Of a stretch of 32,000 nucleotides of DNA, positions 5,371 to 28,487 are shown in pieces. Below the pieces are notes generated by a model. The model made no database searches, was not told the DNA's origin, and saw only the letters and a list, made by a program, of their open reading frames with translations. Each line of letters starts with the position of its first letter. Positions within the stretch are counted from its first letter, which is position 1. Source of the DNA: Acaryochloris thomasi RCC1774. GTDB taxonomy: Bacteria; Cyanobacteriota; Cyanobacteriia; Thermosynechococcales; Thermosynechococcaceae. The position numbers and the translations under genes were made by a program. The stretch is from assembly GCF_003231495.1 (NCBI RefSeq), contig NZ_PQWO01000014.1, positions 132,550-164,549 on the forward strand, in the 5' to 3' direction.

Positions 5371-5406
5371 TTCAGATCTCCTAGCCAGTACCAATCCTCT
5401 GCATAA

Positions 5407-6092: not shown

Positions 6093-6625
6093 TAACTCGC
6101 CTCTTTAATAAGTTTGGCGTTGGCGGCTTCAGTTGCCTTGGCATGTTTGACAACGTATTCTGCATCGATGATTGTGGCTTCTATTTCCTGTAGGTGATCA
6201 TCGGCATAGACTAGGTTTTCCTCAGCCAGTGTTGCCTTACGCTCTGCATGGTCAGAATTTCGTATGGCGTTATAAATCTTCCGGCCCAACTGTTCCAGCT
6301 TGCTAGGTTTCATCCGTTCGTCTAGCTCTGCATCGAGCTTGTCAGCCTTTATCCGAAGCTCTGGATCAGCATTGTCTTTCACCTGCTGCATCTCCGCTTT
6401 GAGGTCAGAGATTTGCGATCTCAACTTGTCGTTAGATTTGCGAGTATTGTTTGCTCCGTGTGCCCTCATTTTCTTAACCAATATGGTGAGATGAGGGACC
6501 ATTTCTACAGGAGCATTACCAAGGCTCAGAAGCGTATCGTCTTCTAAAGATCCCAGGATGGCTAACGCAAAGGTAGTGTCGCGGTTGAGCTGTTTGACAA
6601 GTTGCTGACGCTGTTCGGGGTCCAT
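6092..6625 (-). CDS. hypothetical coiled-coil protein
   Basis: 177-aa ORF rich in heptad-like charged helices (ISDLKAEMQQVKDNADPELRIKADKLDAELDERM...). The start is uncertain. An alternative start at Met42 (6502) would remove the 64-nt overlap with ORF 6562-6825. Confidence 0.5.
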   Translation of the reverse strand: MDPEQRQQLVKQLNRDTTFALAILGSLEDDTLLSLGNAPVEMVPHLTILVKKMRAHGANNTRKSNDKLRSQISDLKAEMQQVKDNADPELRIKADKLDAELDERMKPSKLEQLGRKIYNAIRNSDHAERKATLAEENLVYADDHLQEIEATIIDAEYVVKHAKATEAANAKLIKEAS

Positions 6626-13585: not shown

Positions 13586-15043
13586 CTATAGCGTCCCAAA
13601 TCCCTTCCGCTTTTTGTTCTTCTTTTTCTTTTTGCCACCGCCACCTTGGCCCCGCCATCCTGGCCCCGGAGCCTGACCGCCGCCGCCCATCATGCCGCCG
13701 CCAAACGGGTTCATGCCGCCCCCCATGCCCCCCATGCCCGGCATTTGACCCTGGCCCATCTGCTGCATCATCGTCCGCATTCTCTGGAAGTCGGTGACCA
13801 GCTTACTGACGTCATTGAGTGAGTAGCCTGAACCCTTAGCAATTCGGCGTCGCCTGCTGGGGGAGCTAGATAGCAAATCTGGATCCTTGCGCTCTGCCTG
13901 CGTCATGGAGCCAATCATGGCTTCGGTCTGCTTAAGCTTCCCTTCGCCTTCTTCGAGCTGAGAAGACGAGAGCTTGTTCATGCCCGGAATCATTTTCATG
14001 ACGCCGCCGAGAGATCCCATATTTTTCAGGAGCCGCATTTGCTTCAGAAAATCAGAGAAGTCAAACTGCGCCTCCATGATCTTTTGGGTCATTTTTTCGG
14101 CATCGGCAATGTCGAATTCTTCCTGAGCTTTTTCGACAAGGGAGAGGACATCCCCCATCCCCAAGATGCGCGAGGCCATCCGCTCAGGGTAGAAGGGCTG
14201 CAGAGCCTCTACTTTCTCGCCGACGCCAATAAACTTGATCGGCTGTCCCGAGATCTGTCGGATGGATAGCGCTGCTCCCCCTCGCGTATCGCCATCCATC
14301 TTGGTGAGAATCGCGCCGGTAATCCCGATCTCTTCGTGGAAGGTGCGGGTTAGGTTAGCGGCTTCTTGGCCAGTCATCGCGTCCACAACCAGCAAAACTT
14401 CGTCAGGTTTCACCGTCTTTTTAATGGTGGCTAGCTCACCCATCATCTCGGGGTCAATCTGGAGTCGGCCAGCGGTGTCGATGATCACGGTATCAACATT
14501 CTGTTCGCGGGCGGCGGCTAGACCCTGGCGAGCAATCTCTACCGGGTTGGCATCTGCACCAATTTCAAAAACAGGGACGTTGATCTGCTTGCCCAGCGTG
14601 ACGAGCTGATCAATGGCGGCGGGTCGATAAACATCAGTCGCCACCAGCAGGGCCGAGCGCTCTTGCTTGCGCAGATGGAGGGCTAGCTTAGCGGTCGCCG
14701 TTGTTTTACCGGTTCCTTGCAAACCCGCCATTAAGATGACGGTGGGGGCTTTATTGGCTTCTGCTAGAGGAGCGTTGGTCTCTCCCATGACTTTGATCAG
14801 CTCATCGTTCACGATTTTGATGAACTGCTGATCAGGGCTGACCCCCTTGATCACTTCTGCGCCCAGGGCTGTCTCACGGACCTCTTCGATAAAATCTTTG
14901 ACTACCTGTAGGTTGGCGTCAGCTTCGAGAAGCGATCGCCTCACGTCTCGCAGGGCTTCTTGAATATTTGACTCTGAGATCTTGGCTTGACCTCGCAGAG
15001 ACTTCCAGGCAGATTCTAGACTTTCGGAGAGGGCCTCAAACAT
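13586..15043 (-). CDS. ffh: signal recognition particle protein Ffh
   Basis: The NG domain G-motifs are present (GLQGTGKTTATAKLA, DTAGRL, TKMDGD). It has a Met-rich M domain and a Gly/Met-rich, Lys-rich tail. Confidence 0.97.
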   Translation of the reverse strand: MFEALSESLESAWKSLRGQAKISESNIQEALRDVRRSLLEADANLQVVKDFIEEVRETALGAEVIKGVSPDQQFIKIVNDELIKVMGETNAPLAEANKAPTVILMAGLQGTGKTTATAKLALHLRKQERSALLVATDVYRPAAIDQLVTLGKQINVPVFEIGADANPVEIARQGLAAAREQNVDTVIIDTAGRLQIDPEMMGELATIKKTVKPDEVLLVVDAMTGQEAANLTRTFHEEIGITGAILTKMDGDTRGGAALSIRQISGQPIKFIGVGEKVEALQPFYPERMASRILGMGDVLSLVEKAQEEFDIADAEKMTQKIMEAQFDFSDFLKQMRLLKNMGSLGGVMKMIPGMNKLSSSQLEEGEGKLKQTEAMIGSMTQAERKDPDLLSSSPSRRRRIAKGSGYSLNDVSKLVTDFQRMRTMMQQMGQGQMPGMGGMGGGMNPFGGGMMGGGGQAPGPGWRGQGGGGKKKKKNKKRKGFGTL

Positions 15044-15160
15044 AGCGATTCAATACGGTGAATATGCTTCTTTTGTATTAGCCTAGCGTACTCTCTTGCA
15101 AACACCCCAACCGTAGAGCTGTGTTACGGTTACTCACGAACGCAACCCGTTATGTAGGCC

Positions 15161-16255
15161 ATGCAGACTCTTCCATTCCTACCTTTTGACTTGCCCTTTG
15201 CAACACCACTCACCAAGCTGGCATATCAGACCTTTTCGCAGAGCAAAAATGTATTTGGCATTGCCCATAGAGAATGGAATAGCCGTGTACGACAGGCTGT
15301 TGATCCACCTCGGCAGCAAAAGGTTAGCAAAATCGACGATCAGATGCTGGCGATGCTGCAAAAGCGCTTCGACCAGCTATTAGAATCTGACTGGGATGAT
15401 GCTCAGCAGGGCATTTATCCCACTGCTCTACTGTTTGACAATCCTTGGGACGAGTTTTTTCGTTTCTATCCGGCGGTGTGGTTGGATGCCCCTCAGACCT
15501 GGCGGCGCTACAACCAGCGTAGATATCAGGAATTCTCAGAGGCTGTTGATACAGCTGGGTATCCAAAGTACTATCTGCAAAACTTTCATCATCAGTCAGA
15601 TGGATACCTCAGTGATGACTCGGCTAATCTCTATGACCTACAGGTGGAGCTATTGTTTGGGGGAACGGCTGATGCGATGCGTCGTCGAATTTTGGCCCCT
15701 ATTAGGCAGGGACTGACACGATTTAATGATGTCCTGCCTCAGCACCAACGCATTATCGATGTTGCCTGCGGCACAGGCCGCACGTTGAAGATGCTGAGAG
15801 CAGCTTTTCCGCAAGCGTCTCTGTACGGTACTGACCTCTCTCCGGCGTATCTGCGGAAAGCGAATCAACTGCTGTCCCAGGATCGGGGAGAACTCCCTCA
15901 GCTTTTGCAGGCGAATGCAGAGGCTTTGCCTTATCAAGATAATTACTTCCACATGGTTTCCAGTGTCTTTCTGTTTCATGAGCTGCCTGCAACCGTTCGA
16001 AGAACAATCATTAATGAATGCTTCCGTATTGCTCAACCGAACGGCACTCTTGTCATTTGTGATTCGGTGCAGGTAAGCGATTCACCTGAGATGGAGACCT
16101 TTATGAAGAATTTTCCGGCGGTGTTTCATGAGCCGTACTATCGCCACTACTCAACCGATGACTTAGAGGGGCGCTTACGGCAGGCTGGCTTCACTGATAT
16201 CCAGACTGAGGTCCATTTCATGAGCAAGTACTGGATTGCGCGCAAGCCTGTTTGA
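15161..16255 (+). CDS. class I SAM-dependent methyltransferase with an N-terminal extension
   Basis: Motif I is IIDVACGTGRTLKML, and the post-I/II region (VSSVFLFHELP) is typical of the Methyltransf_11 type. Confidence 0.8.
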   Translation: MQTLPFLPFDLPFATPLTKLAYQTFSQSKNVFGIAHREWNSRVRQAVDPPRQQKVSKIDDQMLAMLQKRFDQLLESDWDDAQQGIYPTALLFDNPWDEFFRFYPAVWLDAPQTWRRYNQRRYQEFSEAVDTAGYPKYYLQNFHHQSDGYLSDDSANLYDLQVELLFGGTADAMRRRILAPIRQGLTRFNDVLPQHQRIIDVACGTGRTLKMLRAAFPQASLYGTDLSPAYLRKANQLLSQDRGELPQLLQANAEALPYQDNYFHMVSSVFLFHELPATVRRTIINECFRIAQPNGTLVICDSVQVSDSPEMETFMKNFPAVFHEPYYRHYSTDDLEGRLRQAGFTDIQTEVHFMSKYWIARKPV

Positions 16256-16299
16256 TAGCAGGTACTCTAAAAATTCTATCGTTCGCGCCGGTTCTGGCT

Positions 16300-17178
16300 A
16301 TGTCTGACACTGAACTACATCAGAATCTTGAGCATCGTTTCATTGTCAGCAATGGCGTAAAACTGCACTACGTGACGCAGGGGAAGGGACCGTTGATGCT
16401 GATGCTTCACGGTTTCCCAGAGTGTTGGTATTCTTGGCGGCACCAAATCCCGGCGTTTGCTCAAGAGTATAAGGTGGTGGCCCTAGATCTGCGGGGCTAC
16501 AACGAGAGTGAAAAGCCGGCAGATGTAAATGCTTACCGAATGCCTGAACTTATCAAAGATGTACGGGATGTGATTGAGGGTTTGGGCTACGACGACTGTA
16601 TTTTGGTGGGTCACGACTGGGGTGGTTTTATTGCCTGGTGTTTTGCCTATGCCCATCCTGAAATGCTGCAGAAGCTGATCGTGATGAATTTGCCTCATCC
16701 GGCGAAGTTCGCAGAGGCGCTTCGCAATAACCCTAGACAAATGTTGCGAAGCTGGTATATCAGCTTTTTTCAGGTGCCGATGCTACCGGAGCTGATGTTG
16801 CGAGCGAATGATTATGATGCGATCGCATCTGCTTTTGCAGATCGAGCAACCAACAAAAATGCCTTTACGCCCGAAGATTTAGCAGTCTTTAAAGATGCCG
16901 CCGCCAGACGGGGAGCGCTAACGGCCATGATCAACTACTACCGCAGCAACACCCGCACCTTCACCTCGCAAGACTGGGATGTCCTTGAGGTTCCGACGCT
17001 TTTGCTTTGGGGCGAAGATGATTTTGCTTTGGGTAAAGAGCTAACCTACGGTACAGAGGCTTATGTGCGAGATCTACAGCTCCACTATCTCAGCCACTGC
17101 AGTCACTGGATTCAGCAAGAGCAGCCAGATCTTGTCAATCAATATATGCGCGGCTTTTTGATATCAGGGAATGGGTAA
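16300..17178 (+). CDS. alpha/beta hydrolase, epoxide hydrolase / haloalkane dehalogenase-like
   Basis: Contains HGFPECWYSWRHQI and the nucleophile elbow VGHDWGG (Asp nucleophile type). I prefer ATG 16300 (MSDTELHQ) over the track's TTG 16252. Confidence 0.85.
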   Translation: MSDTELHQNLEHRFIVSNGVKLHYVTQGKGPLMLMLHGFPECWYSWRHQIPAFAQEYKVVALDLRGYNESEKPADVNAYRMPELIKDVRDVIEGLGYDDCILVGHDWGGFIAWCFAYAHPEMLQKLIVMNLPHPAKFAEALRNNPRQMLRSWYISFFQVPMLPELMLRANDYDAIASAFADRATNKNAFTPEDLAVFKDAAARRGALTAMINYYRSNTRTFTSQDWDVLEVPTLLLWGEDDFALGKELTYGTEAYVRDLQLHYLSHCSHWIQQEQPDLVNQYMRGFLISGNG

Positions 17179-17745: not shown

Positions 17746-19992
17746 TTACCATAATGGCTCAAGTCTTTTTTCTGCAGGCTGTGGTGCATTTGGAGAAAAT
17801 TGTGATTTTCTCTCCATCGGTGAATCGACTTGGACTAAGAAGGCTAGTTTGACCACCTGACCTTGTTTATTTGATACCGAGAGAACAATTTGAGAAAGTT
17901 CCTTCGTGGCTTTTAAGATCTTCGAGTCTTTAGCTGAAACATTTCCAAATGGTTCGAGATTGACAGTGAGATCATCACCTTCTGCCTGCCAATCAAGTTT
18001 TACGACTTGTCCGACTTTCAAGAAGACTGAAGGGGTTGTCTCTGCACTTTGACCATTGAGCGTAAAAGCAGAGATTTTAGGTGGCTTGCCCTTCACTTCA
18101 ACCGGGATTGGTTCGGAGGGTGGTGCCTGTTTTTGATTACTCTTAGAAACCGTTTGCAGACTAATCGTATAGTCACCAGGGGTTGCCGGTAGCCCAACTC
18201 TTACATTTGAGCACATCAGCTCCTCATTTACTGGCGGTTTGCACTTTTGGGTTAGCTCAGGTGGTATCTGCTGCTTAAAGTCATAGGTTTTAATCAACGT
18301 GGGCTTTCCTTCCTTGAGCTGACTAAACACTTGAAGCTCTGAAAGCTGACTGGCATTTTTCAGTTTCCAATTGAGGGGTAGGAGCTGACCTTTCTCAACT
18401 TTGGACTGGCTAGATGAAACGCCCGCTACTAGAGGGAGCGGCCTTGGCTGCACCACAACGTTCAGTTCTTTCTGACTACTATGCTTTTCTGATTTCGCTT
18501 CAATCTGGAGATTAAAGGTGTACTCCCCGGCGAGTCGGGCGCCGGTATCGATGTTTGTGCAGGTTAGGTTGCGATGGCCAAAGGCCGACCGAGAGTCATC
18601 GCGACTCTGACAAAAGCGACTCAACTCCGTTGGCACTCCTTCCGAGAAATCATACACCTGGGGCTTGCCGACAATCTGATCCTTTATAGAAGTAACCGTA
18701 AGCTGCTCAAGCTGGTCTACATTCGAGACACTCCAGTTGAGGCGCACCCGCCCACCTTCCACATAACGATTACTGTCTGGCTTAAATTCAGTCAAGACAG
18801 GCGGCAACGCAGGTCTAAAGAAGGCCAGCCAAATAAAGAATCCAAGGCCCGATAAGGTACCGACCCCCACCAATATCCACAACAGCAACTGCCACCAGGG
18901 GCGGGCTTTCCAAATCAGAAGTCCCTTCGTGACCTGCTCAGGAAGGGGTAATCCGTCAAGGTCTGTGAGATCAATTTGAAACGGCACCTCTAGCCCACGA
19001 CCCAAAAGCGGACGTTGCCATTTCCGTTTGGGTTGCACTTCCAGATCAATCGCCGCTGTTTCACCCATGAGCAAACGAACAGAAGACGGCTCGCAAGTGT
19101 AGTTGCACATCTCTGTTTCATCTCGACTGCTGGCACTCACCACTACTTCCCGGATCAGATTGCTCTGATTCATCAGCTTGAGCCGATACTGACCGGGTTT
19201 ATGGCTAACCTTGCCGAGCAGAGTTTCGAGGGTCACACTAAGATGAAGGGCGGGTTTAACCTCCAAATACACGAGATCTAAAAACACCTGTTCCGGGGCA
19301 TTATCAGACAGAATCTGTAGCGTCGGTGAGTAGTGGCCTGCAGGCATATCCAAGGGGTAATGGAACTCAACGCTGAGGGTGCCCTGGGTGCCAGGGTTCA
19401 GCTCTAAACTATCGCTATCGGACAGTACCCCTAGTTCGCTGAGATCGGTGCAGGGATATTGAATTGTAATCCACTCTGGATCGAGGTCTAAACAGTTGAG
19501 GCGAAAACGATCGACTCGCCTAGATCGATTGTTCACCTGAACTGATAACGTCTGGTGTTGACCGGGCTGAATAAGGAGGGGCTGCTCTGGACTAGTGGCT
19601 GGAGTGATCGCAAAGGTGGGTTGATCTAATCGTTCAACGGACTGCTCTTTGACCCGCACTTCGAGCTGGCACGGATAGTGGAGTGGTGTCTCTTCTGGAT
19701 AGTGATCAGGGGCATCCACAACCACTGTGTATGGATAGCTGCCTGGTAACGCATCAATGGGCAACTCAAAGGGGAGGCTGACTTCGCATCCTTGTTGAGG
19801 ATCGAGGGCGACTCGCTGCTTTGGCGACGGACACCAGGCTTGAGCCATGTGGTCAAGGTAAACATCTATCACTGCTCCCTCAGCTCCTTGATTGATGAGG
19901 CTGACGTGCAGCGTCACCGTTTCCCCTGGGAATCCCTCTAAGCTGGAGGGAGGATTGAGCATCACTTTGAGAGGCATCGTCATCACATTCAT
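17746..19992 (-). CDS. bitopic membrane protein: three N-terminal beta-sandwich (CARDB/NEW3-like) modules, a TM helix, then three Ig-like repeats with conserved Cys pairs
   Basis: No signal peptide. Three modules each carry h-x-h-x-N-x-[SG] (VSLINQGAE, VQVNNRSRR, LKLMNQSNL). One TM helix, WWQLLLWILVGVGTLSGLGFFIWLAFF (nt 18817-18897), is preceded by K/K/R. The C-terminal repeats show clear internal duplication: LNWSVSNVDQLEQLTV..YDFSEGVPTELSRFC..LTCTN..GEYTFNLQ versus LNWKLKNASQLSELQV..YDFKQQIPPELTQKC..LMCSN..GDYTISLQ. GGAAG lies 9 nt upstream, in the 18-nt gap after the previous gene. Confidence 0.8.
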   Translation of the reverse strand: MNVMTMPLKVMLNPPSSLEGFPGETVTLHVSLINQGAEGAVIDVYLDHMAQAWCPSPKQRVALDPQQGCEVSLPFELPIDALPGSYPYTVVVDAPDHYPEETPLHYPCQLEVRVKEQSVERLDQPTFAITPATSPEQPLLIQPGQHQTLSVQVNNRSRRVDRFRLNCLDLDPEWITIQYPCTDLSELGVLSDSDSLELNPGTQGTLSVEFHYPLDMPAGHYSPTLQILSDNAPEQVFLDLVYLEVKPALHLSVTLETLLGKVSHKPGQYRLKLMNQSNLIREVVVSASSRDETEMCNYTCEPSSVRLLMGETAAIDLEVQPKRKWQRPLLGRGLEVPFQIDLTDLDGLPLPEQVTKGLLIWKARPWWQLLLWILVGVGTLSGLGFFIWLAFFRPALPPVLTEFKPDSNRYVEGGRVRLNWSVSNVDQLEQLTVTSIKDQIVGKPQVYDFSEGVPTELSRFCQSRDDSRSAFGHRNLTCTNIDTGARLAGEYTFNLQIEAKSEKHSSQKELNVVVQPRPLPLVAGVSSSQSKVEKGQLLPLNWKLKNASQLSELQVFSQLKEGKPTLIKTYDFKQQIPPELTQKCKPPVNEELMCSNVRVGLPATPGDYTISLQTVSKSNQKQAPPSEPIPVEVKGKPPKISAFTLNGQSAETTPSVFLKVGQVVKLDWQAEGDDLTVNLEPFGNVSAKDSKILKATKELSQIVLSVSNKQGQVVKLAFLVQVDSPMERKSQFSPNAPQPAEKRLEPLW

Positions 19993-20010
19993 GGCATCTT
20001 CCGTAAAGAT

Positions 20011-22224
20011 CTATTGAGGGTTAAAGCGGTGGAACCGAACCTGAGTGTCTTCAGACCCGCTGGCGACCCACATCCCCTGTTCATTGGCGATTAGGTCTAA
20101 CGAAGTAACCCGGTTAGGGAGGATCGCAATCCGCTTCGGTTTTCGGGTCGAATCAAGAGTCATTGTTGAGGTTATGGGCCAAGCGGTGATCTGTCCGTCG
20201 TCGCCTGCGCTCACTAGCCATCGCTGGTCCGGGGTAAATTGAATTTGACGCACCGATGTCTCTGCGGCCTGCCATCGCGATTGTTGAGTACAGCTTTGCT
20301 GGGGCAGCAGGCCCGCTGCTGTCTCTTTTGATTTCGGCAGATTTGTACAGCGGCTCATGTCCCAGAGCGTAATGTAACCATCAGAGTCTGAGGCTGCGAG
20401 AATAGGAGCTTGAGGAGCAAAGGTGGCGTCCCAAAAAAAGTCATTTTCTCCTCGGTTTTGAGCCGGTTCTGCCAAGAGCTGTCGGGGCTGGGATTTGGCA
20501 ACATCCCACAGCACGAGACGCTTAAACTGTCCGGCACTGGCAAGGGTTTTCTCGTCGGGGCTGAGAGCTAAAGACCAGACTTGATAAGCAAAGCGATCGG
20601 GGAGTGAGAAGACTTTTGGCTGATTGCTGAAGCGAACGTCTCTAGTGCGCTGCCAACGGCGAATCTTGCCGCTTCCGTAGCCGCTATAGAGGGTGAGGGC
20701 GTTGCGGGTAAAGGTCAAATCTAAGATGCGATCGCTAGTCTCATCCGTCGGATCCCTCAACGTATATAACGGCTTGCCCTCATTGATATCCCATGCCTGA
20801 ATACTGCCGTTCTCTAAGCCGGCAAACACCTGATTATTGTTTACGGGCACCAGCGCTAAAGCTCGAATGGCTTGTTTCGTTAGGGCGAATAGACCTTTTC
20901 CAGAGCGCGGTTGCTTCTCAGTACAAGTTTGAGTAGACGCCCCTTTGTTTGAGGCACCTTCGGGCTCGAGCGTTCCCCAGCTCGATATTCCCCAGCTTCG
21001 AATAGAGCAATCATCCGCAGCGCTGAGCACTAGCGGCAGTCTGCCACTGGTACCGCTCAGTTGAACCGCATTCACGCCTGCCAGATGAGTGACGGGTGTG
21101 GGTCTAAAGATAATCGCTGCCAGCATGGCGAAAAAAGCCAATAGTAGCCATAGAGGAATGATGGGAAAAACTTTTAGGAGTAGAGTTTGAGTTGCTGGAT
21201 CACAGCTCCCTAACCTTGGATCTGACAGCCAGGGCTTTACCTCAAACTTCAGTTTTTGCGACCATCCAATCCAGGGGCGACGGGGGGAGAGGGTTAAGTC
21301 AACGTTCGTTATTTCTCCGAGCGGCAGGACAGCTTGTTCTGGATCAACCTGAGTCTGGCAGCGCTGAGCATCTTGGCCTCGCACTTCTAAGTCAACGGTT
21401 TGCAAAAGATTACTGGTGTTTTGAAACATCAGCTGGAACGTTGCCTGAGGCGATCTGAAATTTGGCAGCCAGGGCCTTTTCGCCGGAATTCGCTGTCGCT
21501 GAGGCTGGGCTTCAAACTGCATGAAGCCAACAGGCAGAACCTCCAGCACTCCTTGCGTTTCGAGGGTATGCCCTTCTCGATTCTGCGCGGTAATTATGAA
21601 AGGATAATTCTGGCTCGGAACCTGATCAGCCCCTGCAGGCTGACATTGAAAGGTTGTGGTGGTCTCGCTCTGGGCCGCAATTTCTAATCGTCGTTCTGCG
21701 CCGCCCACTAGCCAGCTTGCCTGTAGTTCTTTGCACTGCAGAAGTACTTCTGTTGGCTGCGATCCTACATTTTTGATCGTGACTGGAATATCAATCGTGT
21801 TGCGGGGATAAACCTGCAGGTGCTGGATGGGCAATCCAAGACGCAGATGGTTGGATTCAATTCTGGGTTCTAAGGTGAGTCGCAGCACCAGCCGTCGTTC
21901 TTCGGGGAGCTGTGGCGAAGAGACCCGAACCATAAGATTGACGGTCCCAACAAAGTCAGGAATAGGCGAGTCAAGAATCTTGACCTGGAAGTCAGTGCGA
22001 TCGCCGGTCGATTTTGCGGTAGAGACTTCAGGGGAGAGATGATACCAACCCGTCTGATCATTGGCTCCGGCGGCGAGAATCTCTAGCTGAAACGAGGCAA
22101 ACTGATCGCTACGATTCATGACTGAAACGCCAAAAGAAACAGGTGTTTCCCCAGGGCGAAAGGTGAGGCTTTGCGTAGTTAGACTCGCATCAATAGTTGA
22201 GCTGGCAATCATGATGAGACTCAA
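20011..22224 (-). CDS. bitopic membrane protein: three N-terminal beta-sandwich modules, a TM helix, then a C-terminal WD40 beta-propeller
   Basis: The N-terminal half is paralogous to 17746-19992 (VSVMNRSDQ, VTIKNVGSQ, LMFQNTSNL; PRRPWIGW before the TM; FRP after it). The TM helix is IIPLWLLLAFFAMLAAIIF (nt 21106-21165). WD-like blade ends are SIRSWG, SIQAWDI, KIRRWQ, LVLWDV, ITLWDM, ITAWPI. The track start is TTG 22224; ATG 22212 is an alternative. Confidence 0.8.
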   Translation of the reverse strand: MSLIMIASSTIDASLTTQSLTFRPGETPVSFGVSVMNRSDQFASFQLEILAAGANDQTGWYHLSPEVSTAKSTGDRTDFQVKILDSPIPDFVGTVNLMVRVSSPQLPEERRLVLRLTLEPRIESNHLRLGLPIQHLQVYPRNTIDIPVTIKNVGSQPTEVLLQCKELQASWLVGGAERRLEIAAQSETTTTFQCQPAGADQVPSQNYPFIITAQNREGHTLETQGVLEVLPVGFMQFEAQPQRQRIPAKRPWLPNFRSPQATFQLMFQNTSNLLQTVDLEVRGQDAQRCQTQVDPEQAVLPLGEITNVDLTLSPRRPWIGWSQKLKFEVKPWLSDPRLGSCDPATQTLLLKVFPIIPLWLLLAFFAMLAAIIFRPTPVTHLAGVNAVQLSGTSGRLPLVLSAADDCSIRSWGISSWGTLEPEGASNKGASTQTCTEKQPRSGKGLFALTKQAIRALALVPVNNNQVFAGLENGSIQAWDINEGKPLYTLRDPTDETSDRILDLTFTRNALTLYSGYGSGKIRRWQRTRDVRFSNQPKVFSLPDRFAYQVWSLALSPDEKTLASAGQFKRLVLWDVAKSQPRQLLAEPAQNRGENDFFWDATFAPQAPILAASDSDGYITLWDMSRCTNLPKSKETAAGLLPQQSCTQQSRWQAAETSVRQIQFTPDQRWLVSAGDDGQITAWPITSTMTLDSTRKPKRIAILPNRVTSLDLIANEQGMWVASGSEDTQVRFHRFNPQ

Positions 22225-22353: not shown

Positions 22354-24360
22354 TTACATGAGTTGCGGAATACCGTTAGCCGTAACAACACCTACCATCG
22401 CAACCGAGGGGGCCCCAATATTAATCATTGATGATGAGAATAAATTAAGTGGCCCGACTGAAGTAGCAGTTATGGTGCCTAATGCCTTGACACTGACCGC
22501 ACCGGCTGCATCAACATTAACCGCACCACCTGCCTTTACATCAACCGCGCCACCCGCTTTGAGACTAATAGCGCCACCTGCCATCATATTAATCAGCCCC
22601 GTAGTTCGAAGCGAGATACTCATTGTAGGGTCACTAAAGGTTAAAGCTTGTTGTGTTCTAGTTTTCACCGTGATTGTTGAGGCCGTGTCATTGAGGATGA
22701 CTTGATTCCTGCCAGCGGTCTTGATATCAATCCCTTTTGAAGCGAGATTATCATCCATTTCTATCTGGTGCTTTCCATTTGTCCTGATCTCAATCTTGCG
22801 ATCGCTATCATTCAAATGAACCTTGTGGCCTCCAGATGTCTCAATAAGAATGCCTTTATCAAAGCCAAATTTACCCTCTTCAACAAATTGAATAGTGTGG
22901 CCTGTACGAGTCTTGATCGTACGTAGGTTGACCTTCCCATTTTGGATAGTGTCACGAACGGTTTCAACGGTTTTGTCTTTGCCGTTCCAGACGCCGCCAA
23001 TGATATAGGGGCGATGAATGTCTCCATGCTCAAAGGCAACTAGGACTTCATCATCAATTTCAGGAAGACAGTAAAAGCCCCGCTCCTTAGCAGCTCCTAG
23101 ACCTACCACTCTGGCCCAGTGGCTTTCGTCCTTCTCAGTCAAAGTAGGAAACTTTACCTTGACGCGCCCCCAGCCCTCAGGATCATCATTATTGGTCACT
23201 ATGCCGACTAGGTTCGTTTGACCGGGCTGCAGATGCGTCTTAGGCGGCAGGGTAGAGAGTAAGCTACCTTGTCTTAACCCACGAACGTCAAAATGAGTCT
23301 TCAGTACCCCTTGTCGATAGAGATGACAGGCTTCGGTCACATAGTATTGACCGCTATAGCGAGTCCCCAGCTTTTCAAGTTTGACGACTTTGCCAGGACG
23401 GATTTCGGGGTTGCCTTCAGCCTTCGCTTTGGCCGTTACGAACTCACCCCCTAGTTCATTACAGAGAGCCTGAGCCATTTGCTTCGCTTCTTTTGAACTC
23501 TCAACGGTTTGATCCACTACAATCATCTGCGGAGAGGGCATGGACTTAAAGACCTGACTGCTGCTACCTTTCTTATTGCCAGTGCTAGTAACAAGCTGTT
23601 CTTCAGAGACCTTCTCTGAGATCAGTTTCTTCTGGCTGTAATCCCAGCCGTGGACTTCAACGGAGCTAACCTGCTCAGCAGTAGTCGTCCGTACATCGAA
23701 GCTACTGATGTCGGTAAGCCACTCTAGGCTTAAAGAGCCATCACTCTTCGGTTCACGGAAGTAGAGCTTGTTATCCTGCACAAAGAGTTCAAAGCCAATG
23801 CGGGCCGCTCGCTCGCGCAGAAACTCCATATTGGTTTGATTCTCTTGGAATGTATAGTCACGGGGAGTGCCGCTTGAATCAACTTGCCCCATTTTGATGC
23901 CCGCTTCTTTGGCAACTGTTTTGACAATGTCGCTTTCGGTCTGGTTTAAGAAAGAGCGGTTATGGCGTCCCCGATGCAGTCGATGGGAGATGTCATAGCC
24001 TCGGATGACAAGGTGAGCTTCAGAGGTCTCAGAAAACTTGACTTCGATGCCAGTAATTTCACCCTCAATTAACTGCAGCTCTTGTTCGCTCTCTTTAAAC
24101 TCAGGGTCTTCTGTTGTACTGCCCTTAAACCCGATCGTGATTGAATCGCCGAGCTTGAAATATTTCTCATTCCGCCATTCTTCGCTGTCCTCGCTGGCAG
24201 GAACGTAGACGTTATGAACCTTGAGAACAAACATGCTCGGCAGATGCAGGCTCTCATCTACAGTGATTTCTAATATGTCTTTCATCAGTGTTGCCGAAGC
24301 GGTAGCGCCTCCTATCTTGAGGATTGGCTCTGATAAATAGAGGGTTTTACTCTTAGGCAT
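22354..24360 (-). CDS. phage-tail spike protein, gpD/gp27 plus gp5 OB-fold plus beta-helix (VgrG/Afp8-like)
   Basis: The N-terminal late-control-D/gp27-like region reads LEITVDESLHLPSMFVLKV..., LVIRGYDISHRLHRGRHNRSF..TESDIV..., NMEFLRERAARIGFELFV. The gp5-type OB fold reads GIVTNNDDPEGWGRVKVKFPTL...SHWARVV...GFYCLPEIDDEVLVAFEHGDIHRPYIIGGVWNG. The C-terminal beta-helix has 8-residue repeats (KAGGAVDV KAGGAVNV DAAGAVSV). Confidence 0.9.
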   Translation of the reverse strand: MPKSKTLYLSEPILKIGGATASATLMKDILEITVDESLHLPSMFVLKVHNVYVPASEDSEEWRNEKYFKLGDSITIGFKGSTTEDPEFKESEQELQLIEGEITGIEVKFSETSEAHLVIRGYDISHRLHRGRHNRSFLNQTESDIVKTVAKEAGIKMGQVDSSGTPRDYTFQENQTNMEFLRERAARIGFELFVQDNKLYFREPKSDGSLSLEWLTDISSFDVRTTTAEQVSSVEVHGWDYSQKKLISEKVSEEQLVTSTGNKKGSSSQVFKSMPSPQMIVVDQTVESSKEAKQMAQALCNELGGEFVTAKAKAEGNPEIRPGKVVKLEKLGTRYSGQYYVTEACHLYRQGVLKTHFDVRGLRQGSLLSTLPPKTHLQPGQTNLVGIVTNNDDPEGWGRVKVKFPTLTEKDESHWARVVGLGAAKERGFYCLPEIDDEVLVAFEHGDIHRPYIIGGVWNGKDKTVETVRDTIQNGKVNLRTIKTRTGHTIQFVEEGKFGFDKGILIETSGGHKVHLNDSDRKIEIRTNGKHQIEMDDNLASKGIDIKTAGRNQVILNDTASTITVKTRTQQALTFSDPTMSISLRTTGLINMMAGGAISLKAGGAVDVKAGGAVNVDAAGAVSVKALGTITATSVGPLNLFSSSMINIGAPSVAMVGVVTANGIPQLM

Positions 24361-24557: not shown

Positions 24558-25058
24558 TTACCCCAGCCTCTTATCTGCCTTTCCTGCTGTAGGTGCTTTG
24601 CTCCCTGCTACATTGCTTGGATCGACTTCTTGGAGGCCAATGTTGACGATGGCTTTGACCGGGGTGCCGTCTTCTAAAAAGAGAGTAAGCCGATAATTCA
24701 AGCTTGTCATCACGCAGTGAAAATACTTTTCAGACCACATTAATGTATAGACAGGGGGGCGACTAATGGCGCTAGATTTAGCGGTCACTCCCTCTTTGAT
24801 ATTGTTGATATGCTCTGCGAGGACACTTTTTTTTGTTTCATAGGTGTCAAAAAGCAAGTTCTGTAATGTGCAGGTGTAGGGATCAACTCCTGAGAAATTC
24901 ACCTTTGGTAATAGAGTGCTGCTGCGATTCCCCCGATCGCTGTGCCAAGCAACTTGGCGGGTGAACTCAAGTTCTGATGGATTAAACATGAACTCAATTT
25001 CTTTGGGGTTACCACTGAGAGCGCTATAGACCTCCAGCTTTGCTTTTGTCAGTCCCAT
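24558..25058 (-). CDS. CIS tube-initiator-like protein (Afp7 N-terminal / CIS_tube-type domain, no LysM)
   Basis: Its pattern is KAKLEV....G.PKEIEFMFNPSELEF.....W.........NF.G..P....L..LLFDTYE....V..HI..I........RPPV....W.......V..SL......F..DGTPVKA.V...L.EV. That matches the family signature as I remember it. Confidence 0.8.
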   Translation of the reverse strand: MGLTKAKLEVYSALSGNPKEIEFMFNPSELEFTRQVAWHSDRGNRSSTLLPKVNFSGVDPYTCTLQNLLFDTYETKKSVLAEHINNIKEGVTAKSSAISRPPVYTLMWSEKYFHCVMTSLNYRLTLFLEDGTPVKAIVNIGLQEVDPSNVAGSKAPTAGKADKRLG

Positions 25059-25095: not shown

Positions 25096-25506
25096 CTAAG
25101 TCAAACACCCTTGGGTAAATCCGTGGCGTTCTTGCTCGATTTCTAGCCGTCGATAAAGTTGGTAAGCCATTTCTTGCGTTAGCTGTGCAAAAATGTCTTC
25201 ATTGATTTGCCTAGAGAGGCCTGGGTTTACCGCTTGCCACAGGAGGCTCGTGCTTTTAGGGAAGCCATTGCGCTCTTGCTCAATTTCTAGGAGGGGAGAG
25301 ATGCGATGACAAATCATTCCAGCTAAAAGCTTTAAATCTGCAAGATTGACTTGGTCCACGTTGTCCAAAGCGTCTTCGAAGCTAGAAGCTTCAGGCTCTA
25401 CGTTTTCGGCAAGCGGCTTCTCTTCTGGTTCAACAAAATGGACTGTAAGGTCATGTTTCTGAATGTCCTCATCTGCCAGTAGGTCTTCAATACTTGTCCA
25501 CTGCAT
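25096..25506 (-). CDS. hypothetical acidic protein with a duplicated helix plus LEIEQER-x-GF module
   Basis: 136-aa ORF with a CAGGAG RBS. The N-terminus is acidic. The motif LEIEQERNGF (nt 25261-25290) recurs as LEIEQERHGF (nt 25117-25146), with about 21/26 nt identity. It occupies the Afp6-like position between the tube and the tube initiator. Confidence 0.65.
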   Translation of the reverse strand: MQWTSIEDLLADEDIQKHDLTVHFVEPEEKPLAENVEPEASSFEDALDNVDQVNLADLKLLAGMICHRISPLLEIEQERNGFPKSTSLLWQAVNPGLSRQINEDIFAQLTQEMAYQLYRRLEIEQERHGFTQGCLT

Positions 25507-25527: not shown

Positions 25528-26040
25528 TCATTCCCAGGCGCTAGTTGCGAAATATCCTTTGCCATCTCTTTCGTTAGTTCCAGATTTCGCGGCTTCTTTC
25601 TTGCCAATTTTTAAACCTTCGAAGGCGAGGGTCAGCTCTTCTACAGCCACCGTATTACCGTCTGCTTCTAAGCTGGGTAGCGTCCAGCCCACCGGAATGG
25701 CACCAATGAGACTCCAGCTTTTCATAATGTCTCCAGCCTGGTTGTAGGTGGTGATCGTTACGTTGCGTCGCTTAATTTTGTCTTCGAAGACTTGGCTCAG
25801 CCATTCTGAAAAAGCAGCATTGTCTGTGACCCCTCGTTTGAGTGTGATATCTGAAAATCTAGTGTGTCCTAAGCTAATCCGTTGCTGATCGTTGACGCCC
25901 CCCTCGTGATGAACATCTTTCTCAATCTCAACACTGATGCCTGAACATTCAGAGAATGAACCCAGTTCGTCTCCATCGACTTCTATATGGAATCGATTGG
26001 TGGTGACAAAGTTCTCAACGTGATCTTTGTATTCAGCCAT
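25528..26040 (-). CDS. phage tail tube protein, T4 gp19 / Afp1-Pvc1 family
   Basis: Its pattern is NRFHIEVDGDELGSFSECSGISVEIE...HEGG.....ISLGHTRFSDITLKRGVTDN..F.EW......KI.RRNVTITTYNQAGD.MKSW.L.GA.PVGW..PSLEADGN.VAVEELTLAFEGL. This is the characteristic eCIS/T4-like tube signature. Confidence 0.9.
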   Translation of the reverse strand: MAEYKDHVENFVTTNRFHIEVDGDELGSFSECSGISVEIEKDVHHEGGVNDQQRISLGHTRFSDITLKRGVTDNAAFSEWLSQVFEDKIKRRNVTITTYNQAGDIMKSWSLIGAIPVGWTLPSLEADGNTVAVEELTLAFEGLKIGKKEAAKSGTNERDGKGYFATSAWE

Positions 26041-26315: not shown

Positions 26316-28487
26316 TCAATACTTTTCCCAACTGCGGATCAGCTTTTGTGCCTTGGGATAAGACGGGCTCGGTTCTTGGATTTGCTTGAGGGTTGCGATC
26401 GCATCTCGAAACTTGCCATTTCTGGCCAATTCTTTGGCAAGGGATAGACGACACCGATCAAGTTCCTGTTGAGATTTTTGATACTGCTCTGTACTGGATT
26501 GAACATCATCGCCTCTAGAGTGGCTGACGTAACCTGACGGTTGTGTCCTCTCTGTTCCTACGGCAGACAGTTGCGGACGGGAACGCCACTTCCTGAAATC
26601 AATCATCCTGCGAAGAGACTGAAAGCATCGTCTGGGTAGACTGACGAAAAGCATGCTGACAGATCTCCGACTCCGCCAAACATTTCGCACAAGGGCTCGG
26701 CCCGGAACTTTATTTTTATTGCGTACAATTGCCAAATCTGCCTGCTGAATGTGCGGCGTATTCTGCTGGCACAGGGTTTGGTCCAGTGGTTGCTCATCCA
26801 TTGGATCGATAGTTTGGGCAACCGTTTGATCCGCTGGGTTGTGGATGGCTGAGTCTAAATACTGAACAATCGTCTCGTCAGCCCCCAAGCCAGGAGAAAT
26901 CTTACCCTCAATCCTTCTCCCCTTTTGACTATTAGGCATATTGCTCTCTAAAATCGTCTGGGCTACTGTCTGATCGATAGGGAAATGAGCGATCGGGCTT
27001 GAGGTTTGAACAATTGTCTCATCCACTCTCAGAACTTGTGCCGAATCATCATTTTGATCGGCTGGATTATGGATGGCTACATCTAAATATTGAACAATCG
27101 TCTCATCCACTCCTAAGTCTTGAGCATCTTCGATCTCAAGGCTGTCACTGACCTTTTTATGATTCTCCAGTACGCTGCTTTCTGAGTATATTTGGGTCAC
27201 TGTTTGATCGATTGGGGGAAAAGCGACTGAGTCTGAATATTGAACAATCGTTTCATCCACTCCTAAGTCTTGGGCAGCATTATCGCTATCGCTTAAGGTT
27301 GCGCTACGCTCTGACCAAGCACTCGGCAACACGACTTGGGTCAACGCTTGACCAGCAGGTGCGGGGCGCTCTGAAGCTTGGATCATAGTTTCGTCAAGCT
27401 CCAGAGCCTGCATTGTGTTTGAGCGATCGGGATGGTCAACTATCGTTGATGTCACCTGAGTTGATGCACCTTTGATTCGGGTATCCAAACTCCCTTGAAT
27501 GAAGGTCTGATCATAATTGTCCCCGTGATTATCACTTGCAGCATCCGGTGCTGGGTGAGCGCCAATCTCCACCTGCTCCAGTGCTTGTCGCAATGCGTTG
27601 ATAGAGGCGTAGCGATCGCACGGATTCTTTGCTAAACACCGATTGACAATCTCCGACAATGCAGCTGTGACCGGACTCTTCATCAACAACACCTGCAGTA
27701 AACGAGGTGCCCGAAACGCATGGGCATGAATCCAAGCCCCCTCTCTCACCAGCCGCGAATCTAAACCCAGACCAAAGGGGTCGGTTCCGCTGAGCATCTC
27801 GTAGAGAATGATGCCTAACACATAAACATCTGCAAGATGATTCTTCTCTTCTCCTTCTAGCTGCTCAGGAGCTGCATAGTGAAAAGTTTCCGGCAACAAT
27901 GTTTCAAAACTTGCACCTTGGGTTTCGCAACAAGAGCTGCGAATGTCTTTCGTAAGTCCGCAGTCCAGTAACTTGACCGGCCCGCTTCGCGTTAGAAAAA
28001 TTTGAGTAGGCTTCAGCTCGTGGGGCACAATTACAAACGGTTCATCACTCTCGAACAAACTCGCAAATTTGCTTTGGTAAGACATTTCTAATGCCGCACA
28101 AATTTGACTAGTAATACCAACAGCCTGCTGGGGTGACAACTTCCCCTCTCTCTCAAGACACTGTTTGAGACTTTCTCCCTGCAAATATTCCATCACATAA
28201 AACGGGCAGCCACCTGCATTCGTTCCTGAGTCCAGCACTTGCGCAATGTATTCACCTCCGAGCGCTGCACACGACTTGACGGCCCTTTCAAACTGCTGGC
28301 AGGTCTCGGCATTTTCTATCAGAGGTTCTTTGAGCACCTTGATGACAACAGACCGATTCAATTGAGTATCCGTGGCTAGAAAAACCTGCCCAACGCCACC
28401 TGAATCAAGGACATGCTTAACGATGTAGCGGTCATCTGCACCCCATGGCTGAGCTTGGTGGGAGTTCTGGATAGGGGTAAGAGTCAT
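26316..28487 (-). CDS. Hanks-type Ser/Thr kinase homologue with degenerate catalytic motifs, a Thr-rich repeat array and a TPR-like C-terminus
   Basis: The kinase fold motifs are SGGVGQVF, VVIKVLK, YAAPEQ and LGIILYEMLSGTDPFG. However, HRDLKPxN reads PHELKPTQ and DFG reads DCG. The middle third carries 5-6 degenerate ~30-aa repeats. The C-terminus LAKELARNGKFRDAIATLKQI is TPR-like. No TM segment. Confidence 0.85.
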   Translation of the reverse strand: MTLTPIQNSHQAQPWGADDRYIVKHVLDSGGVGQVFLATDTQLNRSVVIKVLKEPLIENAETCQQFERAVKSCAALGGEYIAQVLDSGTNAGGCPFYVMEYLQGESLKQCLEREGKLSPQQAVGITSQICAALEMSYQSKFASLFESDEPFVIVPHELKPTQIFLTRSGPVKLLDCGLTKDIRSSCCETQGASFETLLPETFHYAAPEQLEGEEKNHLADVYVLGIILYEMLSGTDPFGLGLDSRLVREGAWIHAHAFRAPRLLQVLLMKSPVTAALSEIVNRCLAKNPCDRYASINALRQALEQVEIGAHPAPDAASDNHGDNYDQTFIQGSLDTRIKGASTQVTSTIVDHPDRSNTMQALELDETMIQASERPAPAGQALTQVVLPSAWSERSATLSDSDNAAQDLGVDETIVQYSDSVAFPPIDQTVTQIYSESSVLENHKKVSDSLEIEDAQDLGVDETIVQYLDVAIHNPADQNDDSAQVLRVDETIVQTSSPIAHFPIDQTVAQTILESNMPNSQKGRRIEGKISPGLGADETIVQYLDSAIHNPADQTVAQTIDPMDEQPLDQTLCQQNTPHIQQADLAIVRNKNKVPGRALVRNVWRSRRSVSMLFVSLPRRCFQSLRRMIDFRKWRSRPQLSAVGTERTQPSGYVSHSRGDDVQSSTEQYQKSQQELDRCRLSLAKELARNGKFRDAIATLKQIQEPSPSYPKAQKLIRSWEKY
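26772..27407 (-). repeat. in-frame degenerate tandem repeats encoding (L)G(V)DETIVQY.D......P.DQTV.Q units
   Basis: Repeated nucleotide blocks are visible at about 26851-26880, 27001-27030, 27081-27120, 27236-27270 and 27380-27400 (for example tgaacaatcgtctcatccac). In protein these are aa 361-572 of the kinase. Confidence 0.85.

Follow-up and report, generated by a model that had tools for sequence, protein, structure and literature searches.

Two adjacent genes of Acaryochloris thomasi RCC1774, located directly downstream of the gene for a VgrG-related spike, encode large proteins in which beta-sandwich domains and a hydrophobic helix are combined with dissimilar C-terminal domains. What does such a pair contribute to a contractile injection system (CIS)? 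The window analysed here, a stretch of 32,000 nucleotides, contains only a fragment of a CIS of type IId ("Streptomyces-like, cytoplasmic"). All genes of interest reside on the minus strand. They comprise the genes for a gp19-type inner tube protein (25528..26040; PF06841, E 3e-38) with matches to tube proteins in the PDB, for a 136-aa protein (25096..25506) that corresponds in BLASTP to the C-terminal end of the large tape-measure-slot protein of related clusters (1065-1874 aa in those clusters), for a CIS_tube family protein, i.e., a tube initiator or adaptor (24558..25058; PF19266, E 8.5e-22), and for the VgrG-related spike itself (22354..24360; NF033848, 351 bits), the nearest solved relative of which is Cis8 of Streptomyces CIS-Sc. 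A gene for a Ser/Thr protein kinase identified by Pfam scan (26316..28487) adjoins the cluster, and the matches of this kinase to PD-T4-6 models in the PADLOC and PHROGs scans reflect generic kinase similarity. Sheath and baseplate genes are absent from the window, and scans of the window for tRNAs, Rfam families and tandem repeats yielded nothing relevant.

In other cyanobacteria, the genes follow each other in the order tube initiator, VgrG, PAAR, gp25, J, P2_I, DUF4159, WD40 protein and Ig protein, and the full operon with the same gene order is present in Anthocerotibacter, a cyanobacterium without thylakoids. In the contiguous operons (loci L006, L007, L020, L037 and L091), the pair directly follows gp25, J, P2_I and DUF4159 and thus occupies the slot of tail fibres and CisA. 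A sequence-only reading of the window had assigned the pair to the baseplate position downstream of the spike. This has to be corrected, because it is these four genes that lie directly upstream in the relatives, while for the window they are located elsewhere. The P2_I protein comprises about 340 aa and lacks a Cis12-like extension. For the J-like baseplate protein, taken from a contiguous relative, the match to Streptomyces Cis11 (9GTP) has an E value of 1e-120, the sheath is much closer to Streptomyces Cis2 (E 8e-120) than to All3325 (E 1e-51) of the thylakoid-anchored CIS (tCIS) of Anabaena, and the VgrG of the window matches 9GTR with an E value of 2e-56 compared with 1e-33 for tCIS All3320. 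Since J, sheath and VgrG are all far closer to the Streptomyces proteins than to those of the tCIS, the system belongs to the IId lineage. Identity with the Anabaena system was considered and rejected on the same grounds, the core proteins being much nearer to CIS-Sc than to the All33xx chains.

The downstream member of the pair, protein A (17746..19992, 748 aa), consists of an N-terminal module of three beta-sandwich domains (18910..19971, residues 8-361), a hydrophobic helix (18826..18897, residues 366-389) that is preceded by the conserved motif WKARPWW and followed by F-R/K-P, and three C-terminal Ig-like domains (17824..18798, residues 399-723). The upstream member, protein B (20011..22224, 737 aa), ends 18 bp before A, and its true start is probably the ATG at 22212, which matches the start of its homologues. 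Its N-terminal module (21169..22194, residues 11-352) is likewise made up of three beta-sandwiches and is followed by a helix (21103..21168, residues 353-374) that begins with P-x-W and precedes R-P, and by a WD40 propeller (20023..21075, residues 384-734). In the AlphaFold2 model of A (pLDDT 85.9), three sandwiches, a helix at residues 366-389 and three Ig-like domains are predicted, and that of B (pLDDT 83.2) shows three sandwiches, a helix at residues 358-372 and 28 strands forming seven blades. The propeller assignment is corroborated by a score of 78.4 bits against Pfam WD40 (PF00400, cut-off 27) and by a Foldseek match to the seven-bladed WD40 protein 5yzv (TM 0.83). Each protein contains exactly one strongly hydrophobic segment (Kyte-Doolittle score above 2), at about residues 366-390 in A and 353-374 in B, and neither has one at its N-terminus. 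The sequence-only reading had described just this arrangement, a single transmembrane helix followed by a WD40 propeller in one protein and by three Ig-like repeats in the other, and it was also right that both proteins lack a signal peptide. A signal peptide is absent, too, from almost all of about 160 homologues; in a few B-type ORFs, all called from the longest possible start, the 12-residue hydrophobicity reaches up to 2.7 within the first 41 residues. The first beta-strand already begins at residue 8-11 in A and B.

As judged by BLASTP, the N-terminal halves of A and B are paralogous, as had been proposed (about 320 aa, 22% identity, E = 7e-7). In an alignment of 21 sequences from both families, the asparagine of each module motif (N34, N155 and N275, numbered as in A) is invariant, and so is the P-x-W with which the helix begins. 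All sequence motifs listed before were recovered in the translations, i.e., the six module motifs, PRRPWIGW, PKRKWQRP, WKARPWW, FRP and the two Cys-pair strings. The label CARDB-like for the three beta-sandwich modules is approximate, all matches in the Pfam scan (Ig_VWA7, Cep192_D3, FixG_C and NPCBM_assoc) remaining below threshold. Conserved cysteine pairs had been noticed in the C-terminal Ig-like domains. In A, two such pairs, Cys461/478 and Cys584/594, show 99-100% conservation among 81 homologues, and the WD40 protein also contains conserved pairs (Cys406/434 and Cys626/645), each of which brackets a loop. Toxin or enzyme domains were not detected in either protein with Pfam, NCBIfam, PADLOC or PHROGs; the latter two gave no match at all. 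A comparison of predicted structures with known CIS components by Foldseek had been proposed, and when the models of A and B were searched against the PDB, no CIS component was matched. The search returned WD40 propellers and otherwise only generic tandem beta-sandwiches (hydin/ASH, alpha-2-macroglobulin, S-layer). An exact look-up of A found no record and its profile no significant match among PDB sequences, while 246 cyanobacterial homologues carry the database name 'COG1470 family protein'.

The arrangement of the two genes is strongly conserved. B is followed immediately by A in 79 of the 83 loci, the four exceptions ending at contig ends, and across the loci the two genes are separated by 18 bp or overlap. 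The domains of the pair are constant from thylakoid-free Anthocerotibacter to the Nostocales. Linkage to CIS genes persists in more than one phylum and with no fewer than five different gene junctions. On a Brasilonema plasmid, the pair resides about 27 kb from the baseplate module and does not adjoin it. Homologues without linkage to tail-like genes had been named beforehand as an argument against a CIS-related role. Of 80 loci, 47, mostly from one Nostoc clade, lack a core CIS gene in the 10 kb on either side. All plasmid records that could be checked encode a IId sheath. These records stem from a tblastn search of 72,556 plasmids with the N-terminal module of A, which matched 19, three cyanobacterial ones and 16 from Streptomyces clavuligerus; a IId sheath is present on all 17 that occur in the sheath table (three cyanobacterial and 14 S. 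clavuligerus plasmids), the other two S. clavuligerus records lying outside its rows. Genes that are repeatedly found next to the pair encode Ser/Thr kinases and FHA proteins as well as a hybrid histidine kinase, a GerE response regulator and a PBP-like protein. These analyses show membership of a IId CIS cluster and a conserved pairing of the two genes, and they support A and B as dedicated accessories of a tail-like injection system.

Which known proteins do they resemble? With the N-terminal module of A, tblastn yielded a direct match in Streptomyces (E 5e-6). A profile built from the N-terminal modules of A and B aligns in hhalign with a 'hydrolytic protein' of a Streptomyces IId cluster (probability 98.8%, E 1.3e-16), which corresponds to Sco4256 by annotation, size and cluster position but is not the Sco4256 sequence itself, and with the profile of the 'hydrolytic protein' family (98.9%, E 1.9e-17, 231 columns). 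Both alignments span sandwiches 2 and 3, the juxtamembrane stretch and the helix; via this family, sandwiches 2 and 3 of A are homologous to domain 1 of Sco4256. Among 1073 ORFs from 83 loci, the reciprocal hmmsearch with the Streptomyces profile returned matches to the A and B clusters alone. Profile comparison in both directions thus shows homology between the Streptomyces family and the part common to A and B, N-terminal module plus helix, and the best explanation is that A and B represent the Sco4256/4257/4258 family in cyanobacteria. The PD40/DUF11 protein encoded in the Streptomyces cluster was also compared, and a relationship to it was rejected.

Sco4256, Sco4257 and Sco4258 are paralogous proteins with a single transmembrane helix, a common N-terminus and variable C-termini, which are annotated as 'hydrolytic protein' or 'COG1470 family protein', were termed 'CIS-associated effectors' by Casu et al. 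2023 (PMC10066040) and appear as 'putative toxin' in Vladimirov et al. 2023 (PMC10020575). The single-helix architecture of A and B is therefore already described, contrary to the earlier statement that no CIS accessory of this kind was known. Another membrane accessory already known from this CIS lineage is CisA, which is bitopic as well. When sco4256-4258 are deleted, CIS-dependent cell death is lost while assembly is unaffected; the triple mutant phenocopies the CIS deletion, with about 85% empty tubes compared with about 3% in the wild type, and expression of any one of the three proteins is toxic to E. coli; the authors took the empty lumen and the toxicity as signs of cargo or effectors (PMC10066040). 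Sco4256 has also been detected in purified particles. Association with CIS particles, the need for cell death and toxicity on expression have been reported for the Streptomyces proteins only. Cyanobacterial homologues of the family were noted in 2023; two cyanobacterial accessions were found in the supplements of PMC10020575. Literature searches combining DUF4159 with contractile, COG1470 with VgrG, or CIS with WD40, cyanobacteria and transmembrane found no papers.

Like A and B, the Streptomyces proteins are encoded by adjacent paralogous genes in a type IId cluster and start with an Ig/PapD-like module, which is followed by one hydrophobic helix that opens with P-x-W and exits with R-P and by a variable C-terminal domain of a binding type. 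Weak Pfam signatures (Ig_VWA7, Cep192_D3, FixG_C, HYDIN-like) are also common to both groups. The cyanobacterial proteins differ in possessing a third, additional N-terminal sandwich, in their C-termini (WD40 propeller and Ig repeats versus ricin or lectin-like domains), in forming an invariant two-gene pair, and in gene position, A and B following the baseplate genes while the Streptomyces genes reside at the opposite end of the cluster.

The N-terminal module of A and B is almost certainly cytoplasmic, because it lacks a signal peptide and because A-position orthologues within CIS clusters carry an additional N-terminal winged-helix-like domain. Note that the latter assignment is based on sub-threshold matches (best 24.4 bits, cut-off 25.6) and that one relative with such a domain is not linked to CIS genes; A and B of the window contain neither a winged helix nor a signalling domain. 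Conserved cysteine pairs are confined to the C-terminal domains of both proteins, which argues for an extracytoplasmic C-terminus. We infer that the helix spans the membrane and that the C-terminal domain lies on the far side. The positive-inside rule, which had been invoked for the same orientation, does not carry the argument: K+R counts are equal on the two sides of the helix in 81 A-type proteins and reversed in 79 B-type proteins (0.56 on the N-terminal versus 2.18 on the C-terminal side). The Streptomyces consensus shows the same reversal as B. Evidence on topology is therefore conflicting, the rule being neutral for A and reversed for B. In addition, canonical WD40 propellers are normally cytoplasmic, which counts against an outside location of the C-terminus of B.

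We assign a rough probability of 0.42 to the reading that A and B are single-pass membrane proteins dedicated to the type IId CIS and that the pair acts as a docking or trigger site. The signal-less triple beta-sandwich module would remain in the cytoplasm, the conserved helix would cross the membrane, at least ancestrally the cytoplasmic one, and the WD40 or Ig-repeat domain would be placed on its far side. The cytoplasmic membrane is suggested as the ancestral site because thylakoid-free Anthocerotibacter has the full operon. The translationally coupled pair could assemble a hetero-oligomeric site, the cytoplasmic rods of which would bind the periphery of the CIS baseplate and tether the particle to the membrane or recruit it there, such that firing of the docked particle would damage the cell's own envelope. 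Baseplate contact and docking are inferences, and the anchor or conduit proposed earlier is a possible function, one of two live models. Against docking we counted the 47 of 80 loci without a core CIS gene nearby, the generic folds returned by Foldseek, the empty tube lumen and E. coli toxicity reported for Streptomyces, the reversed charge bias of B and the fact that the window lacks sheath and baseplate genes. A bolder version, which we regard as tentative and on balance unlikely, takes the A/B heteromer as a true trans-membrane docking and trigger complex composed of Ig-like rods, helix and WD40/Ig heads on the outside, which would be the functional equivalent of the membrane complex of type VI secretion systems (T6SS). 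Sco4256-4258 would then be receptors or anchors and not cargo.

A rival explanation follows the published view of Sco4256-4258. As effectors or cargo, A and B would travel with the CIS and stay soluble in the cytoplasm, their helix being shielded, e.g., in or at the tube or spike, and firing would cause their insertion into the membrane, envelope damage and cell death. The empty tubes and the deletion phenotype of the triple mutant, the toxicity of each single protein and the presence of Sco4256 in particles all fit this idea, which would moreover accommodate both the reversed charge bias and the cytoplasmic-type WD40 domain of B; directly after VgrG, as in the window, is a common position for effectors. 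Toxicity in E. coli and presence in particle preparations are, however, also features of CisA, which is not an effector. A folded seven-bladed propeller like that of B exceeds the width of a tube lumen of about 4 nm. Neither protein has a toxin or enzyme domain, the C-termini being WD40 and Ig scaffolds, the cysteine pairs suggest that these C-termini reside in an oxidising compartment, and the pair is vertically conserved with domains fixed across the phylum, unlike typical polymorphic effectors. We consider the cargo function possible but doubtful.

Regulatory genes next to the pair could point to a trans-membrane sensor or regulator, in which the outer WD40 and Ig domains perceive a cue from the envelope that the cytoplasmic module passes on to control CIS expression or firing, either via kinase, FHA and two-component proteins encoded nearby or, in winged-helix relatives, directly to the DNA in the manner of ToxR. 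The recurring kinases, FHA proteins, histidine kinase, GerE regulator and PBP-like protein, the N-terminal extension of A-position relatives and the like role proposed for CisA are in line with this. That extension was called below threshold and does not occur in the window, where signalling domains are lacking as well, and the linkage to regulators partly reflects shared ancestry among closely related Nostoc genomes, such that a sensor appears improbable. Least credible by far is that A and B are ordinary COG1470-type envelope or surface proteins with their sandwiches outside, located near tail-like genes by chance. While their database name, the generic sandwich folds and the many loci without a nearby CIS gene would allow this, it is at odds with the absence of signal peptides, the N-terminal winged-helix domain of some orthologues, the linkage retained through at least five gene junctions and across phyla, and the IId sheath on all 17 plasmid records in the sheath table.

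Type IId CIS are fired within the cell that makes them and in Streptomyces bring about regulated cell death, and the same lineage is present in cyanobacteria, where its form is marked by an invariant WD40 and Ig pair in the fibre slot and no toxin domain. This pattern fits a structural role or one in membrane coupling more readily than it fits cargo. If docking is correct, A and B would work like Cis13 of the tCIS or CisA of Streptomyces, albeit with different parts. CisA (SCO4242) of the cytoplasmic Streptomyces CIS is likewise a bitopic accessory of the same lineage; its N-terminus has been shown experimentally to be in the cytoplasm and its C-terminal domain outside, it is needed for firing and cell death, it is predicted to contact Cis11, and a sensor role has been proposed (PMC12237407). 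Homology to CisA was rejected, since the N-module profile of A and B aligned with the CisA-position protein of locus L087 with an hhalign probability of 0.1%. CisA differs in its disordered N-terminus with zinc ribbons and its outer domain resembling solute-binding or carbohydrate-binding domains; the zinc ribbon and F5/8-type-C-like Pfam domains of the CisA-position protein are absent from A and B. In the tCIS (PMC8894136), a protein with a transmembrane helix is attached to the baseplate and holds a cyanobacterial CIS at the membrane, as proposed here for A and B. Unlike these, Cis13 is a short, fibre-like trimer whose helix is C-terminal and which has no domain on the other side of the membrane, and the tCIS represents a different, AFP-like lineage with a Cis12 extension, the Cis13 transmembrane fibre and a Cis19 crown. 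Homology to TssJ, TssL or TssM was not found in the Pfam and NCBIfam scans of A and B, and the architecture of the T6SS membrane complex formed by these proteins is different. The concept would nevertheless be the same, i.e., an envelope-embedded dock for a contractile machine in the cytoplasm, and the linkage of the pair to kinase and FHA genes recalls PpkA and Fha of the T6SS.

Gene A (748 aa; 17746-19992, minus strand) and gene B (737 aa; 20011-22224, minus strand) encode paralogous single-helix membrane proteins. The true start of B is probably the ATG at 22212, where B homologues begin. All motifs quoted for the two proteins in the sequence-only reading are present in the translations, and their N-terminal halves are indeed paralogous (BLASTP: 22% identity, ~320 aa, E 7e-7). 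When 21 A-type and B-type N-termini were aligned together, the asparagine in each module motif (N34, N155, N275) was invariant, as was a P-x-W where the hydrophobic helix begins. A single strongly hydrophobic segment is present in each protein, away from the N-terminus. Confident AlphaFold2 models built with family alignments show, for A (pLDDT 85.9), sandwiches at residues 8-112, 126-245 and 251-361, a helix at 366-389 and three Ig-like domains at 399-723, and, for B (pLDDT 83.2), a helix between three sandwiches and 28 strands that form seven blades. The earlier proposal of a ~7-blade WD40 propeller in B is corroborated by the model as well as by PF00400 (78 bits). The propeller is a canonical WD40 (Foldseek TM 0.83 against a 7-bladed bacterial WD40).

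The nearest known family of A and B comprises Sco4256, Sco4257 and Sco4258, three paralogous proteins of the Streptomyces contractile injection system (CIS) cluster. Joint deletion of sco4256-4258 abolishes CIS-dependent cell death and leaves the tube lumens empty, and any one of the three proteins is toxic to E. coli (PMC10066040). In the models of Vladimirov et al. (PMC10020575), a PapD/Ig-like domain 1 precedes a helix; the same authors reported homologues from IId regions in filamentous cyanobacteria and Chloroflexi. Our A+B N-module profile matched the 452-aa 'hydrolytic protein' of the Streptomyces plasmid IId cluster L087 with 98.8% probability (E 1.3e-16) and a profile built from 16 Streptomyces proteins of this kind with 98.9% (E 1.9e-17), the comparison protein being equated with Sco4256 by annotation, size and cluster position. 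The 231 aligned columns run from sandwiches 2 and 3 through the juxtamembrane stretch into the helix. In the reverse search, run against 1073 ORFs from 83 cyanobacterial loci, the Streptomyces profile matched the A and B clusters only, with a B protein as best match (E 6e-14). When 72,556 plasmids were searched with the A N-module by tblastn, 19 records were obtained, three cyanobacterial plasmids and 16 from S. clavuligerus, the latter with matches ~3 kb from the sheath gene. A IId sheath is present in all three cyanobacterial records and in the 14 of 16 S. clavuligerus records that the sheath table covered. Both families also go by 'COG1470 family protein' in databases and have their weak Pfam signatures in common. 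As profile, reverse and tblastn comparisons agree, A and B are members of the Sco4256-4258 family, with which they have homology, helix and cluster context in common, and the claim that no CIS accessory of such architecture had been described is therefore wrong. They differ from the Streptomyces proteins in an additional first sandwich and other C-terminal heads. Adjoining the Sco4256-like gene of L087 is a gene (13743-16940) for a 1065-aa protein with PD40 (TolB-like propeller) and DUF11 sandwich repeats, another propeller and beta-sandwich pairing in a IId cluster; it was rejected as a relative of A and B, showing no homology to their N-module.

The system itself groups, on sequence grounds, with the cytoplasmic CIS of Streptomyces coelicolor, type IId. 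In searches against solved structures, the J-like protein matched 9GTP Cis11 (E 1e-120), the sheath scored 8e-120 with Streptomyces Cis2 versus 1e-51 with All3325, and the VgrG of the window scored 2e-56 with 9GTR versus 1e-33 with All3320. The thylakoid-anchored CIS of Anabaena (tCIS) was rejected as the lineage of this system because sheath and VgrG score far better against Streptomyces. Gene order is collinear with L087.

Upstream of B, the minus strand carries genes for a VgrG-related spike (22354-24360), a CIS_tube protein (24558-25058), a 136-aa product (25096-25506), a gp19-type tube (25528-26040) and a 723-aa Ser/Thr kinase (26316-28487). Sheath, cap, gp25, J, P2_I, PAAR and ATPase genes are absent from the 32-kb window, which therefore holds a fragment of a system; its remaining DNA is cyanobacterial housekeeping. 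The 136-aa ORF lies between tube and tube initiator, and its similarity is restricted to the C-terminal ~135 residues of the 1065-1874-aa tape-measure-slot protein of related clusters, so that a length-determining protein has seemingly been cut down to its C-terminal end here. The two share the motifs WSSIEDLL ... LExERERRG..G.LPW, and Chlorogloea has a 189-aa version. The VgrG gene contains a 24-bp tandem repeat (2.5 copies, 22496-22554) inside its C-terminal beta-helix-like region of AGGAV.VKA peptide repeats, and the kinase carries repeated '(V)DETIVQ' motifs behind its kinase domain. Amid the housekeeping genes, a run of small ORFs (5089-6625, minus strand) with an HNH-like nuclease (5407-5784) and a Cys-rich zinc-ribbon-like protein (5089-5394) may be a mobile-element remnant.

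The pair had been thought to occupy the baseplate position. Related loci hold both, with the pair following the baseplate genes, and it is thus located downstream of the baseplate and is not its substitute. In the early-branching, thylakoid-free Anthocerotibacter panamensis, a contiguous operon reads large protein, CIS_tube, VgrG, PAAR, gp25, J-like, Tail_P2_I, DUF4159, B, A, FHA. The baseplate-DUF4159-B-A order recurs in loci L007, L020, L037 and L091, with gp25-J-P2_I-DUF4159-B-A in L007, whose A is 82% identical to that of the window. The VgrG-B-A junction of the window is found again in Rhizonema, and the neighbour of the pair in Nostocales is often a second module, composed of cap (Pvc16_N), sheath, two tubes, two ~120-aa proteins, an FHA protein and an AAA ATPase. 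In cyanobacterial IId clusters, the P2_I-like baseplate gene is separated from B by the gene for the DUF4159 protein (~400 aa; L006 8730-9938, L007 6517-7698, L093 12312-13511), which has no counterpart in L087 and no match in PDB, PADLOC or PHROG.

Homologues of A occur in 199 species-level genomes. The best 80 are nearly all labelled cyanobacteria (one is labelled Acetobacteraceae MAG), and the closest, with 82% identity, stems from a Thermosynechococcaceae MAG. B is followed directly by A in 79 of 83 loci, the remaining four being interrupted by contig ends; the genes are 18 bp apart in the window and overlap in Anthocerotibacter. At least one core CIS gene lies within 10 kb of the pair in 33 of 80 loci. 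Linkage has outlasted repeated rearrangement, because at least five distinct junctions occur (DUF4159 to B, VgrG to B, cap to B, A to cap, A to FHA protein). Loci without CIS linkage belong mostly to one Nostoc clade, and in one such genome an unlinked and a linked copy coexist (L022 and L064). An exhaustive HMM search revealed a large N-module family, with 357 representatives at E ≤ 1e-30 and as many as 5113 at E ≤ 1e-3; of four longer relatives examined, three have a neighbouring B, two are located in CIS clusters and one has no CIS linkage. Recurrent neighbours of CIS genes or of the pair are Ser/Thr kinases, FHA-domain proteins, a hybrid histidine kinase, a GerE-type response regulator and a ~700-aa PBP_like_2 protein (in the window, the 723-aa kinase gene and 28589-30070, plus strand; also L005, L026-L037 and L092), the kinases and FHA proteins recalling the kinase/FHA control of T6SS.

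A cytoplasmic N-terminus of A and B is well supported: as already noted from the sequence, both lack a signal peptide, as do almost all of ~160 homologues, the first strand begins at residue 8-11, and several A-position orthologues bear an added N-terminal domain of ~100 aa whose winged-helix matches (TrmB, MarR, IclR, DeoR) are sub-threshold but consistent. Many A-type relatives have such an extension, among them P0285 (L091 10001-13666), P0152, P0160, P0162, P0172, P0176 and P0214; one extension-bearing orthologue is located within a CIS cluster, and the extended layout (winged helix, sandwiches, TM helix, outer domain) resembles that of ToxR. If the helix crosses the membrane, the C-termini would lie outside. 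In agreement with this, conserved Cys pairs are confined in both proteins to the C-terminal side: C461/C478 and C584/C594 in the Ig-like part of A, where such pairs had already been noted (99-100% conserved), and C406/C434 (95%) and C626/C645 (100%) in B, each flanking a loop. The positive-inside argument did not hold, as A-type flanks are even (K+R 2.0 on each side) and B-type flanks reversed (0.56 before the helix, 2.18 after it); in Streptomyces, too, the consensus is more positive beyond the helix. Structural relatives of the B propeller in Foldseek are cytoplasmic proteins. The topology evidence is thus contradictory, with the Cys pairs on one side and charge bias and propeller relatives on the other.

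The data are compatible with two models, in which the pair serves either as membrane dock or trigger or as cargo or effector. We favour the former, with a probability of roughly 0.4. Cytoplasmic rods of three sandwiches would extend to the baseplate periphery, anchored by the helix, and the outer domains would bind or sense envelope components. The genes occupy the fibre/CisA slot of the operon as an invariant, translationally coupled pair, toxin domains are absent, conservation has been vertical since the thylakoid-free basal lineage, and the Streptomyces phenotypes, except for lumen density, are also common to the adaptor CisA. The published reading, that the proteins are cargo or effectors, draws on the empty lumens and on toxicity in the Streptomyces system, and it would account for the reversed charge bias; we consider it somewhat less likely than a dock or trigger. 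A variant in which the pair acts as sensor or regulator appears improbable, and that A and B are surface proteins unrelated to CIS is very improbable indeed.

CisA, Cis13 and Cis12 of the tCIS and the T6SS membrane complex are functional analogies only: profile alignment with a CisA-position protein and domain scans for T6SS membrane components gave no homology with A and B, and Cis13 and Cis12 belong to another CIS lineage. New is the cyanobacterial form of the Sco4256-4258 family, with three sandwiches, WD40 and Ig heads and an obligate pair, and its conservation pattern bears on the dispute over effector versus anchor.
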